Under the pieces are notes generated by a model. It searched no databases. It saw nothing but the letters and a program-made list of their open reading frames with translations, and was not told where the DNA came from. Source: a virus (taxonomy: Duplodnaviria > Heunggongvirae > Uroviricota > Caudoviricetes). Taken from it: a DNA stretch of 4,217 nucleotides. Shown piece by piece: positions 281-4,217 of this stretch. The stretch's first letter is position 1. Each line of letters opens with the position of its first letter. The position numbers were made by a program, and so were the translations under genes. The stretch spans positions 1 to 4,217 of IMG/VR virus record IMGVR_UViG_2609459830_000018. The stretch is one strand, 5' to 3'.

Positions 281-513
281 CCACTACACTTTTCAGCGTG
301 GGTTATTGAAGCCTGCAGAAGAAGGCTGGCAACAGATGCAACGCATCTGCGTACGGCCAGCATGACAAATAACGAGAAATGAACGTTCGGTTACAGGAGC
401 AGGTACCCACTGTCCTCCAACAATATTTCATCTTCATACCCGGCGGAACAAGACTTACCCAGCCGGGATGTACAGAATAACAACAGAGTGATAATTAATT
501 TCTGATGAAATAA

Positions 514-840
514 TCAGGGTGCAGAAGGACTAAAGATAAACGTTTTCTTCACGCCTTTACGCGGCCTGTCCTTCTCAAATCGCCATTTTGCCATCGCCTT
601 TACAACCTGCTCATCAAACAGATGGTGCGGCTCTGAACGGATAAACTCAATTCGGGTGACAGTACCATCAGCACCAATATCAAACTTCACATCAACCCGT
701 CCCTTTATATAATTTGCCGCTGCATAGGCCGGATATTGTGGTAATGCCTTCACCAATTGTCGGGGCATATCTGTTTTATGTTGCGTACAGCCCATAACCA
801 GAGAAGACAACAAAATAATTAACGGAAGATTTCTTTTCAT
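514..840 (-). CDS. Outer-membrane lipoprotein consisting of a TonB C-terminal-domain-like fold (about 108 aa)
   Basis: Minus-strand ORF. N-terminus MKRNLPLIILLSSLVMGC has a basic n-region, hydrophobic core and lipobox-like VMGC with Thr at +2. The mature part ...LPQYPAYAAANYIKGRVDVKFDIGADGTVTRIEFIRSEPHHLFDEQVVKAMAKWRFE matches the remembered TonB_C motif pattern (YP..A....I.G.V.V.F.I...G.V.......S.......D..V..A...WRF). Start chosen at ATG 840 (GGGAA 5 nt upstream); in-frame alternatives are ATG 846 and GTG 855. Confidence 0.65.
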   Translation of the reverse strand: MKRNLPLIILLSSLVMGCTQHKTDMPRQLVKALPQYPAYAAANYIKGRVDVKFDIGADGTVTRIEFIRSEPHHLFDEQVVKAMAKWRFEKDRPRKGVKKTFIFSPSAP

Positions 841-856
841 TTTCATTCCCGGCACA

Positions 857-877
857 GATAAGAATAAGTCTTATTCT
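857..877 (-). promoter_or_regulatory. Perfect AT-rich dyad (AGAATAAG-T-CTTATTCT, 861-877) overlapping a candidate -10 (TAGAAT, minus strand 878..873) just upstream of the lipoprotein gene; possible operator, loosely Fur-box-like
   Basis: Directly visible 8-1-8 perfect inverted repeat 11-31 nt upstream of the start codon. By hand alignment the 19 nt at 857-875 (GATAAGAATAAGTCTTATT) match the Fur consensus GATAATGATAATCATTATC at 13 of 19 positions. The -35 is weak. Confidence 0.35.
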
Positions 878-1178
878 AACAATGCCACCCTGTCGGTCAT
901 CAATCCTCTGCTTGATGGCAACGACAATTATCCGACTTAAATCACAAATCAGACACATAACAGGGCTTGCGAGGTAACACATCGTCCGGCTTCTTCCACC
1001 ATCGCACCGGACAGGCGACTATGAGGGGCAACGCCGCGCTCCGTTAACGCGGTAAACCCCGGTGTGTATCGTTTTTGATTATCCCCGCACACTCGCGAAG
1101 AGGAGTCTCCCGGTCGGGCTGCGGTCTCTGTTAATGCGGGAATACGGCGACAATACCGCGCATGGATAATAAGGTCGC

Positions 1179-1403
1179 TCAACACACTGGCTGTAATGCA
1201 GCGGATACCATGCGGCATTTAGCGGCATTCATCGTACACTCAACGGTTAGCTCTTCATTCGTGGCATTCACCTGAAAGGTCCGGGAGTGTAATTGCGTAC
1301 ATTTACCACTGAACGAACCTTCAACAAGAACACGACCACGCTGCAAAATACGGAACAGAATTGTTCCCTGAAAAGGCTTTACGGTTACCAGTAATTTCTT
1401 CAT
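1179..1403 (-). CDS. Hypothetical 74-aa protein, translationally coupled to Rz (ATGA overlap)
   Basis: ATG at 1403..1401 overlaps the Rz TGA stop (1402..1400). GGAGGA sits immediately upstream. No hydrophobic segment and no domain I recognise. Confidence 0.45.
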
Positions 1404-1900
1404 ATATCCTCCGGATAATAAAAAGCCAGCTTAGTGCACTGAGTGCGGATATATTCCTGCGCCCCTTCCAGCTGCTTCTGCATTGTCATCAACCGTTCTC
1501 TGAGGATGAAATAATCCCGTTCAGCGGTGTCTGCCAGTCGGGGGCCGGTTGCATTATCCACGCCGGAGGTGGTGGGGGCTTCACGCACGGAGCCTGGACA
1601 GGTGGCGTTGATCCGCAGGCGCTTACGACCAGCGGCAACGTCAGCGCGAAGAGTTTCATTTTCAGCTCTCGCATCGGCTAATTCCCTCGAGTATTTTGCA
1701 TCGAGCGCAGCAACATCGCGCTGGCGCACCTGCATATCAGTAATGGTTGCGTTCGCCAGCTTCAGTTCACTGGCTTTGTTATCGCGCTGCGCTTTGTAGG
1801 TAATCGCGTTATCACGGTAATGGTCTGTTGCCATCCACAGCGCACCACAGGCCACCAGCAGAATAACGATAAACGCGGAAAGCATTCGGTTTATGTTCAC
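1400..1900 (-). CDS. Rz: i-spanin (Rz), inner-membrane spanin subunit
   Basis: Translation ...[45 protein letters not shown]...VAAGRKRL...[34 protein letters not shown]... is near-collinear with lambda Rz as I remember it. N-terminal TM segment present. GTG start at 1900 overlaps the upstream ORF's TGA (GTGA); ATG 1885 is an alternative. Confidence 0.9.
1489..1674 (-). CDS. Rz1: o-spanin (Rz1), outer-membrane lipoprotein, embedded in the +1 frame of Rz
   Basis: Translation [61 protein letters not shown] has a lipobox (VSAC) and the proline-rich [26 protein letters not shown] core characteristic of lambda Rz1. It lies entirely inside Rz in another frame, the classic embedded architecture. Confidence 0.9.
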
Positions 1901-2028
1901 CCCAGCAGCCCCGACGAAGACAACATCATCCAGGCCATGGAAAGAAAAAGAGCAACCAGCATTAGTGAAAATGAAATGCCGACAATTACACAGAGGATCT
2001 TCGCCAGCGTTATGAGTTTGTCTGACAT
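1897..2028 (-). CDS. Small single-pass membrane protein (43 aa), function unknown
   Basis: ATG 2028..2026 is preceded by a strong SD (GGAGGA, 6-nt spacer). The stop TGA overlaps the Rz GTG start. Product [43 protein letters not shown] is dominated by one hydrophobic helix. Confidence 0.55.
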
Positions 2029-2042
2029 GCTTAATCCTCCCT

Positions 2043-2225
2043 TCACGATTTCAACGCAATGACCAGTTTTGCCAGCCCATACAGCATCGGGGACACAGCA
2101 ACACCGACCGCCACCCACTTAATGGCAAAAGCCAGTGCTCTGCTGATGTCATCAGTTACAGGCGCTTTCAGTTCAAGGCCGTTTTTCATGGTCAACCTCA
2201 ACAGAATTCGTTTATACTTCGCCAT
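2043..2225 (-). CDS. Small membrane protein (60 aa) with basic N-terminal region and C-terminal hydrophobic helix, function unknown
   Basis: ATG 2225..2223 is preceded by AGGGAG. Product [60 protein letters not shown]. Stop is 14 nt upstream of the next gene's start. Confidence 0.5.
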
Positions 2226-2258
2226 GTTCTCCCTTGCCTTACTCAAGGTCAGAAACAC

Positions 2259-2296
2259 AAAACCCCGCTTGGTGCCAACAAACGGGGTTTTTACTT
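2259..2296. terminator. Bidirectional rho-independent terminator between the endolysin gene and the small membrane protein genes
   Basis: AAAACCCCG (2259-2267) pairs with CGGGGTTTT (2283-2291), with an inner TTGG/CCAA pairing. It is followed by a T-run on the plus strand (TTTTTACTTTTATT) and on the minus strand (TTTTGTGTTTCT). Confidence 0.6.
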
Positions 2297-2381
2297 TTAT
2301 TCACTTACGTTTCGCCAGTTCGCAGGATTTCATGTTATCCGCCCGCGTGGCCATGCCTTATTTTTCAGCAAAATATTCTGC

Positions 2382-2915
2382 TTATCTGTCGATACCCCAG
2401 CACGCCAGCGCGCTCTCCTGGTCACGACGGGATACCTGACCGTAGCAGTTGTTTGAACGAATACGGCAGTCTCTGCCACCGTCCTTAATCCACCAGCGAA
2501 TCGCCTCACATGCTCCCCTGCGATCACCAGCATTAATTCGTCTGTAAAACGTCGACGGGAAACACTTACCGGGACCAATGTTGTACGGACAGAATGACGC
2601 GATCCCCGCTTTCTGGGGTTCGGTCAATGGCACTTTGATGTTTTTCTCCACCCATGCCAGCGCCTTATCACGTTCGATGGCGTTAACCTGGTCGCATTTC
2701 TCCTTCGACAACTTCATGCCCGGGACGACAGGTTTACCATCCACCAGAATGGCACCGCGACAGATGGTCCAGATACCCGCGCCATCACGGTATGCCGTGG
2801 TGTGGTTACCTTCCTTTTCATCCAGAAACTGGTCGAGAATGTCAGGCGCAGGCGCACCAGCGGCAATCAGCGCCAGAACGGCAGCCGACAGGCCGTATTT
2901 GATTTTGGTGTTCAT
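2382..2915 (-). CDS. R: Phage lysozyme (T4-lysozyme-like muramidase) with N-terminal SAR (signal-anchor-release) type domain
   Basis: N-terminus MNTKIKYGLSAAVLALIAAGAPAPD is a Gly/Ala-rich weakly hydrophobic segment. Catalytic-triad context E..(8)..D..(5)..T is present in EGNHTTAYRDGAGIWTICRG. Overall collinearity with P1 Lyz / phage 21 R type endolysins as remembered. Paired with a pinholin upstream. Confidence 0.88.
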   Translation of the reverse strand: MNTKIKYGLSAAVLALIAAGAPAPDILDQFLDEKEGNHTTAYRDGAGIWTICRGAILVDGKPVVPGMKLSKEKCDQVNAIERDKALAWVEKNIKVPLTEPQKAGIASFCPYNIGPGKCFPSTFYRRINAGDRRGACEAIRWWIKDGGRDCRIRSNNCYGQVSRRDQESALACWGIDR

Positions 2916-2951
2916 GGATATATTAAATATTCAGCCGCTGTCCCTGGCCCA

Positions 2952-3509
2952 CTAAATACGCACTTTAAGATAAGTCAGCCCCGGATGAAGCCAGTAAGCC
3001 GGCACTTTTTTAAAGGGGGGAGTATTAAAATCACGAAGAAGAGCCTCCCGCACAATTGCATCCTTATCAGCACCACTGGCCAGCGCTTCAATCTCAGCGG
3101 CTACCTGAAGATATCCCATGCAACGGCCAACGCGCTTCATCAGCCCCTGCTTTTTATTGTTCTTCAGGTAATCAATGGCAAATTCAATGAGCTCCTCACT
3201 GTGCTGGTGCAATGGAGGTGTTACTTTCCCATTTTCTGAGATGGTTATTTTCCCGGCATCACCGGATACAACAAAGGATGGCCGGTTACACTCCCATTCC
3301 AGGTTACTGAAATTATCATTATGAATACTGAAACACTCTGAGAGATTTCTGCTCATCACTTTCCGACAATAATCGTCAAACGCAGCAAACTGCTCATCGC
3401 GGCGTTTTTTTTCATCTTCAGAAGGCATCAGCGTCGACAGTTTTTTATTCAGTTCAGCAATTTCATTTTCCAGACGACTGAAGCGCTGATTCATTTCTTC
3501 ATGGTTCAT
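2952..3509 (-). CDS. Hypothetical soluble protein (about 185 aa) inserted between holin and endolysin genes
   Basis: ATG 3509..3507 has GGGGAG 8 nt upstream. The ORF begins 4 nt after the holin stop and ends 36 nt before the endolysin start. N-terminal about 45 residues are charged and heptad-like (coiled-coil-like). No TM segment or signal peptide by eye. No family recognised. Confidence 0.6.
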   Translation of the reverse strand: MNHEEMNQRFSRLENEIAELNKKLSTLMPSEDEKKRRDEQFAAFDDYCRKVMSRNLSECFSIHNDNFSNLEWECNRPSFVVSGDAGKITISENGKVTPPLHQHSEELIEFAIDYLKNNKKQGLMKRVGRCMGYLQVAAEIEALASGADKDAIVREALLRDFNTPPFKKVPAYWLHPGLTYLKVRI

Positions 3510-3512
3510 CAC

Positions 3513-3719
3513 CTAATCTCCCCGGGCAGCCTTGCGACGGTCCTCTCTGATTTTGAAATACAGGTTAGTCAGATACGTCAGCAGGCCAAACAGCAGACTC
3601 CCCAGCACACCTATCGCCACCCACTGGGACGGAGAGACTTTGTCCAGCAGCTGCAGTAACCAGTATCCCGTCCCCACCGCTGACGTGGTGTATGACACAC
3701 CCGTTGTGATTTTTTCCAT
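3513..3719 (-). CDS. S: Class II holin (pinholin), phage-21 S-like
   Basis: Product [68 protein letters not shown] (68 aa, two hydrophobic segments, charged C-tail) is near-identical in pattern to the S21/EssD pinholin as I remember it. Sits directly upstream of the lysozyme and spanins. Confidence 0.85.
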
Positions 3720-3764
3720 CTGATGTATGTCTCCGTCACCGCCGACAGAAAATGAAAGTAAAGG

Positions 3765-3799
3765 AAAACAAAAAGCCGCCAGTGTCGCCCACTGACGGC
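3765..3799 (-). terminator. tR'-like rho-independent terminator in the late leader upstream of the holin
   Basis: On the minus strand GCCGTCAGTG-ggcga-CACTGGCGGC (10-bp stem with one G-U pair) is followed by TTTTTGTTTTCC, about 45 nt upstream of the holin ATG. The position matches the lambdoid pR'-tR'-S arrangement. Confidence 0.55.
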
Positions 3800-3863
3800 C
3801 AACGCCGGGAGCCGTGATTATGGCATTCAGGCTCTGCTAAAAATGCCAGATAACATTCCGGCT

Positions 3864-3872
3864 CCCCCCCCC
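3864..3872. repeat. Homopolymeric C9 (G9 on the coding strand of the late operon) tract in the late leader
   Basis: Nine consecutive C residues read directly from the sequence, between the candidate late promoter and the tR'-like terminator. Confidence 0.9.
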
Positions 3873-3880
3873 TGATTCAG

Positions 3881-3907
3881 GTTATAAATGACACAATATC
3901 TTGACAA
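3881..3907 (-). promoter_or_regulatory. Candidate late promoter (pR'-like): -35 TTGTCA (3907..3902), -10 TATAAC (3886..3881), 15-nt spacer
   Basis: Best sigma70-like hexamer pair on the minus strand between the upstream ORF and the tR'-like terminator. The spacer is short, so the assignment is weak. Confidence 0.25.
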
Positions 3908-3977
3908 CACCCATCACTGTCTGTCAGAAAATGTACTGCCAGATATAAGTATCATGTGAAACCCAACTATCCTTCTT

Positions 3978-4020
3978 AGCCAGTACTTCTCCGACGAAAG
4001 TCAGTACTGGCTGTTTTTTT
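3978..4020 (+). terminator. Plus-strand rho-independent terminator facing into the 3' end of the upstream minus-strand ORF
   Basis: AGCCAGTACT (3978-3987) pairs with AGTACTGGCT (4003-4012), a perfect 10-bp stem with 15-nt loop, followed by G+T7 (4013-4020). The minus-strand side lacks a T-run. Confidence 0.5.
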
Positions 4021-4021
4021 A

Positions 4022-4217
4022 TTATGCTGCCGGTGCATTTATCTCCAGCACCAGACTTTCTATCTCAACGCCATACGCTGCATTTTTTGTAACATCCGTC
4101 AGCGTCAGCGCATTCAGCCCCAGTGTCAGACTGTCTTTTATAACCTGGAATGCCGGGCCAGCCACTCCATTCAGTTTCGGAGTAACCGTGGCACTGCCGG
4201 CGGTGAACACCAGCTCC
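4022..4217 (-). CDS. 3' end of an unidentified protein-coding gene (continues beyond the right edge of the window)
   Basis: Minus-strand frame is open to the window edge, ending ...ELVFTAGSATVTPKLNGVAGPAFQVIKDSLTLGLNALTLTDVTKNAAYGVEIESLVLEINAPAA with stop TAA at 4024..4022. Composition is protein-like and rich in small/beta-favouring residues. It does not look like a Cys-rich Q antiterminator tail. Confidence 0.4.
   Translation of the reverse strand, partial: ELVFTAGSATVTPKLNGVAGPAFQVIKDSLTLGLNALTLTDVTKNAAYGVEIESLVLEINAPAA

Follow-up and report, generated by a model that had tools for sequence, protein, structure and literature searches.

The plus strand at positions 3936–4020 of the window (the whole 4217-nt stretch of viral DNA analyzed here) probably carries the gene for a trans-acting, Hfq-binding small RNA (sRNA) of the PasA/PasC family, named EcOnc51 in EHEC; we place the probability of this reading at about 85%. 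The element is already known, and a published family is thus rediscovered here, not a new one found. The presence of the gene is based here on homology, synteny, and conservation of structure and promoter motif; the accumulation of an RNA of about 85 nt, its Hfq dependence, and its RIL-seq partners come from published homologues and would extend to the window allele by analogy. The window contains the following features:

74–280 (region 1–280), plus strand: 3′ end of an IS3-family transposase (rve_2/rve_3)
517–840 (ORF 514–855), minus strand: lipoprotein with a TonB C-terminal domain (TonB_C; PF03544, E 5e-15), labelled 'Rz-like spanin' in PHROG
1400–1900, minus strand: Rz
1489–1674, minus strand: Rz1 lipoprotein, embedded in Rz
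2382–2915, minus strand: lysozyme (PF00959)
2952–3512, minus strand: phage protein, 186-aa ORF (phrog_1085, PHROG category unknown function, E 1e-111), with no Pfam match
3513–3719, minus strand: class II holin S (PF04971 Phage_holin_2_1, E 8.9e-33; RefSeq annotation)
3862–3845 and 3800–3774, minus strand: two terminator-like hairpins with T-runs (terminator scan)
3901–3930, plus strand: candidate promoter (invariant motif, and geometry fitting the PasA/PasC 5′ ends)
3936–4020, plus strand: probable PasA/PasC-family sRNA gene, 85 nt (covariance model, and alignment to PasA, PasC, and EcOnc51)
3977–4020, plus strand: intrinsic terminator, likely Hfq-binding 3′ end (folds and compensatory pairs)
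3979–3988, plus strand: predicted seed GCCAGUACUU (homology to the PasA seed), overlapping the terminator 5′ arm
4022–4217, minus strand: 3′ end of a sialate O-acetylesterase (nanS-p / SASA family; RefSeq annotation of near-identical loci)
4044–4054, minus strand: CUGGUGCUGGA, the reported PasA pairing motif (RIL-seq chimeras), in the esterase coding 3′ end

In the proposed mechanism, the sRNA gene would be a small insert in the late operon of a lambdoid prophage of the Stx type, and its transcription would run opposite to that of the late genes. Host RNA polymerase would start near 3936 from TTGACA / TGT-CAGAAA and stop at the hairpin and U7; the stem-loop and U-tail would bind Hfq, and the sRNA would pair with mRNAs through GCCAGUACUU in the terminator 5′ arm, one target being CUGGUGCUGGA in the 3′ end of the neighboring esterase mRNA.

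Gene Neighborhood

On its minus strand, the window carries a lambdoid-prophage lysis cassette. Over the 518 bases around the sRNA, identity to many E. coli chromosomes is at least 99%, and there the flanks of the same locus are annotated as 'SASA family carbohydrate esterase' and 'class II holin'; phage records (Stx1a phages, H-19B) label the esterase yjhS, 9-O-acetyl-N-acetylneuraminic acid deacetylase, which is the same as nanS-p. The gene order in the closest genome is Q antiterminator, several morons, esterase, and holin, with Q located about 5.6 kb upstream of the sRNA locus. Thus, the sRNA stretch is the esterase–holin spacer inside the late operon, and not the late promoter region. Late transcripts of the lambda 6S RNA / StxS type start at pR′ directly downstream of Q, run on the late-gene strand, and end at tR′; a pR′-proximal transcript of this kind was rejected as an identity for the RNA, which is opposite to the late-gene strand and, in the closest genome, far from Q.

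The two terminator-like hairpins on the late strand, the stronger of which consists of GGCCGTCAGTGGGCGACACTGGCGGCT followed by TTTTGTTTTC, lie between the sRNA gene and holin S and are kept in the E2348/69 and Sakai loci. Judging from their sequence, they would halt esterase transcription short of the lysis genes unless RNA polymerase is Q-modified, and the nanS-p mRNA would gain a 3′ UTR, about 250 nt long and antisense to the sRNA, that includes the full sRNA complement.

Other features of the neighborhood are recorded here in their own right. A C9 homopolymer (3864–3872) is located just upstream of the sRNA promoter region and may be slippage-prone; its equivalents at the PasA, PasC, and Sp12 loci, which differ in length and composition, are CCTCCCC, CCAACCCC, and CCACCCCC, respectively. 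A 13-bp hairpin (AAAACCCCGTTTGTTGGCACCAAGCGGGGTTTT, 2259–2291) that lies shortly downstream of the lysozyme gene and has A and T runs on both sides resembles a terminator of the bidirectional kind within the lysis cassette; its plus strand gives a rimP-leader Rfam match of 25.6 bits against a gathering score of 47, probably by chance. The genome closest in the sRNA region has a shorter 'YdfR family' gene in the slot of the 186-aa ORF, which indicates that the lysis cassette is mosaic. At least 80% of the whole window is covered by three complete genomes only, and the best among the matches listed span 288–4217; the left-end IS junction is thus an uncommon one.

Assignment to the PasA/PasC Family

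The E. coli O127:H6 E2348/69 homologues PasA and PasC were found by Northern blot and RIL-seq to be Hfq-dependent RNAs of 79–85 nt, with expression under virulence-activating conditions (PMC8550237). The major form of PasA (NC_011601.1, minus strand, 743499–743415) is 85 nt and the minor form (743499 to 743264) is 236 nt; the gene lies between E2348C_0688 and E2348C_0689 in the orientation '> < >', its Northern probe is GCCAGCACTGACTTTCGGTGGAGAG, and its entry carries the remark 'homologues identified in EHEC (EcOnc51/EcOnc52)' (PMC8550237 Table S6). PasC is encoded at 1290909–1290832 on the minus strand of E2348/69 (PMC8550237 Table S6). EcOnc51 was found by Hfq UV-crosslinking (CRAC) in O157:H7 Sakai (PMC4104026 Table S2); in our literature search, this name was found in supplementary tables only and not in article main texts. 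[quoted passage not shown]

A covariance model built from eight published or related copies, with the window left out, finds 3936–4020 on the plus strand over its full length (model positions 1–85) with 93.8 bits and E 7e-19; the next best match in the window scores 6 bits, and the family match is on the plus strand only. The 5′ bound of the gene was set by homology, and the 3′ bound coincides with the last U of the U7 tract. The window sequence CTGCCAGATATAAGTATCATGTGAAACCCAACTATCCTTCTTAGCCAGTACTTCTCCGACGAAAGTCAGTACTGGCTGTTTTTTT aligns gap-free with PasA and EcOnc51, the PasA Northern probe and seed (PMC8550237) match the window hairpin except for paired substitutions, and the Hfq-CRAC interval of EcOnc51 (Sakai Sp12, 2237479–2237555) covers the homologue of the window RNA. 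The window has the family structure (a 10–11 bp stem and U7, z = -4.0, with covariation) as well as the family synteny, '> < >', with the sRNA (plus) between esterase (minus) and holin (minus).

When the whole window was searched against Rfam with E values up to 1, the only matches were two sub-threshold chance ones, ncr982 (28.5 bits, with a gathering score of 50) and the rimP leader mentioned above; AsxR, AgvB, STnc100, and other prophage sRNA families were absent from this result, and the sRNA family itself has no Rfam entry. The sRNA gene is also unannotated in RefSeq under every one of the matches listed. With neither a RefSeq annotation nor an Rfam family, the gene is missed by automated annotation.

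PasA (prophage PP2) shares with the window RNA its position and orientation between SASA esterase and holin, its promoter block, its length of 85 nt, and its terminator architecture, including the CGAAAG loop region and the GUUUUUUU tail; the two RNAs are 82–89% identical. Relative to PasA, the window allele has one stem pair changed from C-G to U-A, a stem extended by a tenth pair, a 3-bp inner helix, and seed GCCAGUACUU in place of GCCAGCACCU, and the 5′ 40 nt differ. Furthermore, the PasA locus has a second sRNA-like module 168 bp on, ahead of the esterase stop; in the window, only one module is present, and it lies at the stop. PasC (prophage PP5) is likewise a single module abutting the esterase stop, with a junction (TTTTTTTATTATGCTGCC) identical to that of the window, the same promoter, and a nearly identical first 26 nt (CTGCCAAGTATAAGTATCATGTGAA vs. 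CTGCCAGATATAAGTATCATGTGAA); its terminator, however, is different and shorter (GCCAGCGUCC...GGGCGCUGGC), and the RNA is 78–79 nt.

The closest relative of the window RNA body is EcOnc51 of Sakai Sp12 (AAUCCAACUAUCCUUCU vs. AACCCAACUAUCCUUCU), which has the same synteny; in contrast to the window, its seed and stem are of the PasA type (C-G pair) and its locus has two modules. EcOnc51 probably corresponds to the variant that Zhu et al. (2026) call 'PasA-2', as deduced from a paper whose alignments are images. AsxR and AgvB (Rfam RF02703 / RF02702) have the same design and niche, being very short, Hfq-bound, and convergent at moron sites downstream of pR′; in these lambdoid-prophage RNAs, the 5′ part varies, whereas the 3′ part with the terminator is conserved (Tree et al., 2014, PMC4104026). 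However, they show no sequence or structure match to the window (cmscan, E up to 1), and they sit 3′ of stx2B or equivalent, whereas the window sRNA is located between esterase and holin.

Seed, Predicted Targets, and Mode of Action

The PasA seed GCCAGCACCU was predicted from target motifs and, unusually, forms the terminator 5′ arm (PMC8550237 Fig. S5). The window seed is identical to it at 8 of the 10 positions, both changes being C to U; PasC also differs at the seed position. The pasA targets listed include E2348C_1246 (site CUGGUGCUGGA) and E2348C_0688 (site CUGAUGCUGGA), neighboring esterase mRNAs (PMC8550237 supplementary file 9). With duplex energies compared for the short seed and site alone, the predicted duplex with CUGGUGCUGGA has -12.5 kcal/mol for the window seed vs. 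-16.9 kcal/mol for that of PasA, pairing being retained by G-U wobble. An RNAduplex calculation for the full-length sRNA against the esterase 3′ end was discarded, because a duplex of the whole molecule is unrealistic and 81 of 300 shuffles were as good.

Due to the two C-to-U seed changes, the PasA targets may not apply to the window allele. By analogy with its homologues, the window sRNA is expected to act in trans with Hfq, with a target range that is possibly shifted. A bolder proposal is that the window allele is functionally distinct, either because the seed changes retarget it or through a cis role on nanS-p or lysis-gene dosage after induction; this is tentative and, in our judgment, unlikely, and neither retargeting nor a cis role is known to have been described for any Pas RNA.

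It is also quite improbable that the RNA is mainly cis-acting, by way of RNase III processing or by interfering with transcription between nanS-p and the lysis genes. The RNA is complementary along its full length to both the esterase 3′ UTR and the late transcript made under Q antitermination, its gene is convergent with the late operon, and, with late-strand terminators beyond the sRNA gene, the esterase 3′ UTR would hold its complement; in addition, RIL-seq recorded a plus-strand 'pasA.E2348C_0689.IGR' RNA, as well as PasA chimeras with neighboring esterase mRNAs (PMC8550237). However, the reported contact between PasA and the esterase mRNA involves a short motif that lies within the coding 3′ end and beyond the overlap; PasA has 41 RIL-seq partners, core-genome genes among them, which is typical of trans-acting behavior (PMC8550237); and a cis effect is not known to have been reported.

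Candidate Promoter and Likely 5′ End

The motif TTGACA-N10-CTGTCTGT is invariant in every copy of the sRNA, including the diverged second module present at some loci (see below), and would be expected by chance 0.04 times in the window. In the window, CTGTCTGT occupies 3917–3924. The candidate promoter would consist of a perfect -35 TTGACA (3901–3906) and an extended -10 (TGT-CAGAAA), separated by an 18-nt spacer (15 nt + TGT), with TG at 3922–3923 and CAGAAA at 3925–3930. The latter hexamer is a poor consensus match, was not called by the promoter scan, and is GAAAAA in the second module. An inspection by eye of CTGTCTGTCAGAAAATGTACTG for a LexA-type or other operator gave no convincing match.

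The mapped 5′ ends of PasA (743499) and PasC (1290909), which rest on RNA-seq coverage and Northern size in E2348/69 with no mapped primary start (PMC8550237), both fall on the CTGCC that matches window position 3936. This position is about 6 nt from CAGAAA, and the start site is thus placed near 3936 as the likely one. The correspondence of the 5′ ends implies an RNA of 85 nt, to which TATAAG (3944–3949) is internal. A longer transcript may be cleaved to give the 5′ end of mature PasA (Zhu et al., bioRxiv 10.64898/2026.05.13.724894).

The initial annotation had proposed a transcript of about 60 nt starting near 3956 from CTGTCA / TATAAG and lying antisense over the late promoter, a version that we consider very unlikely as a whole. 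The hexamers are located as claimed (CTGTCA at 3921–3926 and TATAAG at 3944–3949, with a 17-nt spacer), TATAAG is present in the PasC allele too, and a second start is conceivable, as heterogeneous 5′ ends are known for another prophage sRNA (Tree et al., 2014, PMC4104026). However, both hexamers are weak and were not called by the consensus scan, and CTGTCA is a poor -35 beside the perfect, invariant TTGACA 20 nt upstream. The role of -10 claimed for TATAAG is made unlikely by its place inside the transcript and by its disruption in PasA (TATAGAAG) and its replacement by CATAAG in Sakai Sp12, yet both of these RNAs are expressed. Moreover, the PasA and PasC 5′ ends are about 20 nt further upstream than 3956, for RNAs of 85 and 79 nt, and the late promoter is elsewhere, Q and hence pR′ being about 5.6 kb away from this nanS-p/holin S spacer in the closest genome. 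What stands is a short, non-coding plus-strand RNA antisense to the late genes, as detected for the homologues PasA, PasC, and EcOnc51, with a length of 85 nt by homology in place of about 60 nt.

Terminator Hairpin and Stem Covariation

Both the sequence and the ORF list bear out the strong plus-strand terminator of the initial annotation, a 10-bp perfect stem plus T7 with no plus-strand ORF. The stem is formed by AGCCAGTACT (3978–3987) and AGTACTGGCT (4003–4012), with all 10 bp paired; in the fold, an extra U3977-G4013 pair is possible, giving a stem of 10–11 bp. The 15-nt stem interior holds a 3-bp GAC/GTC helix and a GAAA tetraloop (3993–4002). The stem is followed by G4013 and then T7 (4014–4020) on the plus strand, and the TAA stop of the esterase (4024–4022, minus strand) is one base from the sRNA U-tract. 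The plus-strand fold has -18.7 kcal/mol (z = -4.0), and none of 200 shuffles is equally stable. From about 3720 to the window end, the ORF list holds no plus-strand ORF of at least 30 aa; a small plus-strand ORF was considered and rejected, as there is an ATG-TGA and one 5-codon frame and nothing else. A consensus terminator scan of the window did not pick up the hairpin, because it allows loops of 3–8 nt and the hairpin loop is longer.

The minus-strand version of the stem also folds (-18 kcal/mol), but a U-tract is absent from that strand, on which the stem is followed by AAGAAGGAUAG (AAGAAGG); the hairpin thus differs from bidirectional terminators with a U-tract on both strands. As U7 is present on the plus strand only, the terminator is oriented for plus-strand transcription.

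The covariation alignment comprises 11 distinct alleles, which are few and related, and the evidence from it is modest though consistent. Six pairs of the outer stem are invariant across the 11 alleles, and the inner pairs covary: columns 49–71 change from C-G to U-A in the window allele only, columns 50–70 alternate between G-C and A-U, and at columns 51–69 C-G, U-G, and U-A are all present. Over the full stem, 86% of cells are paired, vs. 22–55% with the 3′ partners slid by 1–3 columns, and five pairs carry double changes, a level reached by none of 500 shuffles; three to four of the stem pairs have double changes that are compensatory. Among the alleles compared, the 3-bp inner helix is present in the window allele alone. 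Because the 85-nt stretch recurs across E. coli genomes and the stem pairs covary, the hairpin is real and no chance feature.

That the hairpin is a structural spacer element only (an insulating or bidirectional terminator, or a stabilizer of the nanS-p mRNA 3′ end) and that this allele makes no functional plus-strand RNA is scarcely credible: such a hairpin does follow the esterase stop in every arrangement, here with one base between, and its stem does fold on the minus strand, but that strand lacks a U-tract after the stem and has its own terminator-like hairpins (3862–3845 and 3800–3774), the U7, upstream promoter motif, and 42-nt body are all conserved in the plus-strand sense, and the homologues accumulate as Hfq-dependent RNAs (PMC8550237). 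An explanation of the hairpin as a shield against convergent transcription, offered as an alternative in the initial annotation, is unneeded, because the homologous RNA is known to accumulate; the hairpin may have an insulating effect as a secondary one.

Module Arrangement and Distribution

At loci of the PasA and Sp12 types, two modules stand in tandem at a distance of 168 bp. The second module shares the TTGACA-N10-CTGTCTGT motif with the first and has another body and a PasC-like terminator abutting the esterase stop; in three of our extracted loci, it lies at L002:2755-2915 (minus strand), L004:684-790 (plus strand), and L005:599-700 (minus strand). It corresponds to EcOnc52 in Sakai Sp4 and, by coinciding with the 3′ end of the minor form of PasA (236 nt), accounts for that form. 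By its sequence, the second module looks like a diverged tandem paralogue; according to Zhu et al. (bioRxiv 10.64898/2026.05.13.724894), pasA copies are not products of tandem duplication.

The window is without a second module, and the sRNA is joined to the esterase at TTTTTTTATTATGCTGCC, as in PasC. This arrangement is consistent with the loss of one 168-bp unit via recombination between terminators, and an indel of about 145 bp relative to Stx1 phage records matches the single-module state. The alleles are mosaics of 5′ bodies and terminators, with one locus (L071) combining a PasA-type body and a PasC terminator. In Sakai Sp4, IS629 is inserted directly upstream of the second-module promoter (L005:731-800) and replaces the first (PasA-type) module as well as the holin side of the spacer, a case of IS-mediated remodelling.

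Of 5426 complete E. coli genomes, 686 carry the sRNA family, the median copy number being 5. The exact window allele occurs in 76 records; the alleles seen most often in complete genomes share 89% identity with it. Among species-representative genomes, the family is otherwise found only in E. albertii. A scan of viral contigs with the promoter pattern (14 specified bases) gave mostly chance matches, from which only loci with GCCAG...CTGGC-U-tract were kept; the corresponding scan of genome contigs gave one true locus (E. albertii) and 16 chance matches.

Significance of the Window Allele

The map of this stretch is corrected from a late promoter to an esterase–holin spacer, and a bare terminator without a gene in front can reliably flag an sRNA gene, even in raw sequence. 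The family to which the sRNA probably belongs is enriched in EPEC/EHEC prophages, is abundantly bound to Hfq, and shows contacts with virulence-gene mRNAs in RIL-seq. For this family, the window allele supplies a clean natural compensatory pair that backs the terminator structure, and its seed variant is usable for testing target specificity. If the window allele is indeed functionally distinct, stem-compensated C-to-U changes in the seed could direct the sRNA to another set of mRNAs.
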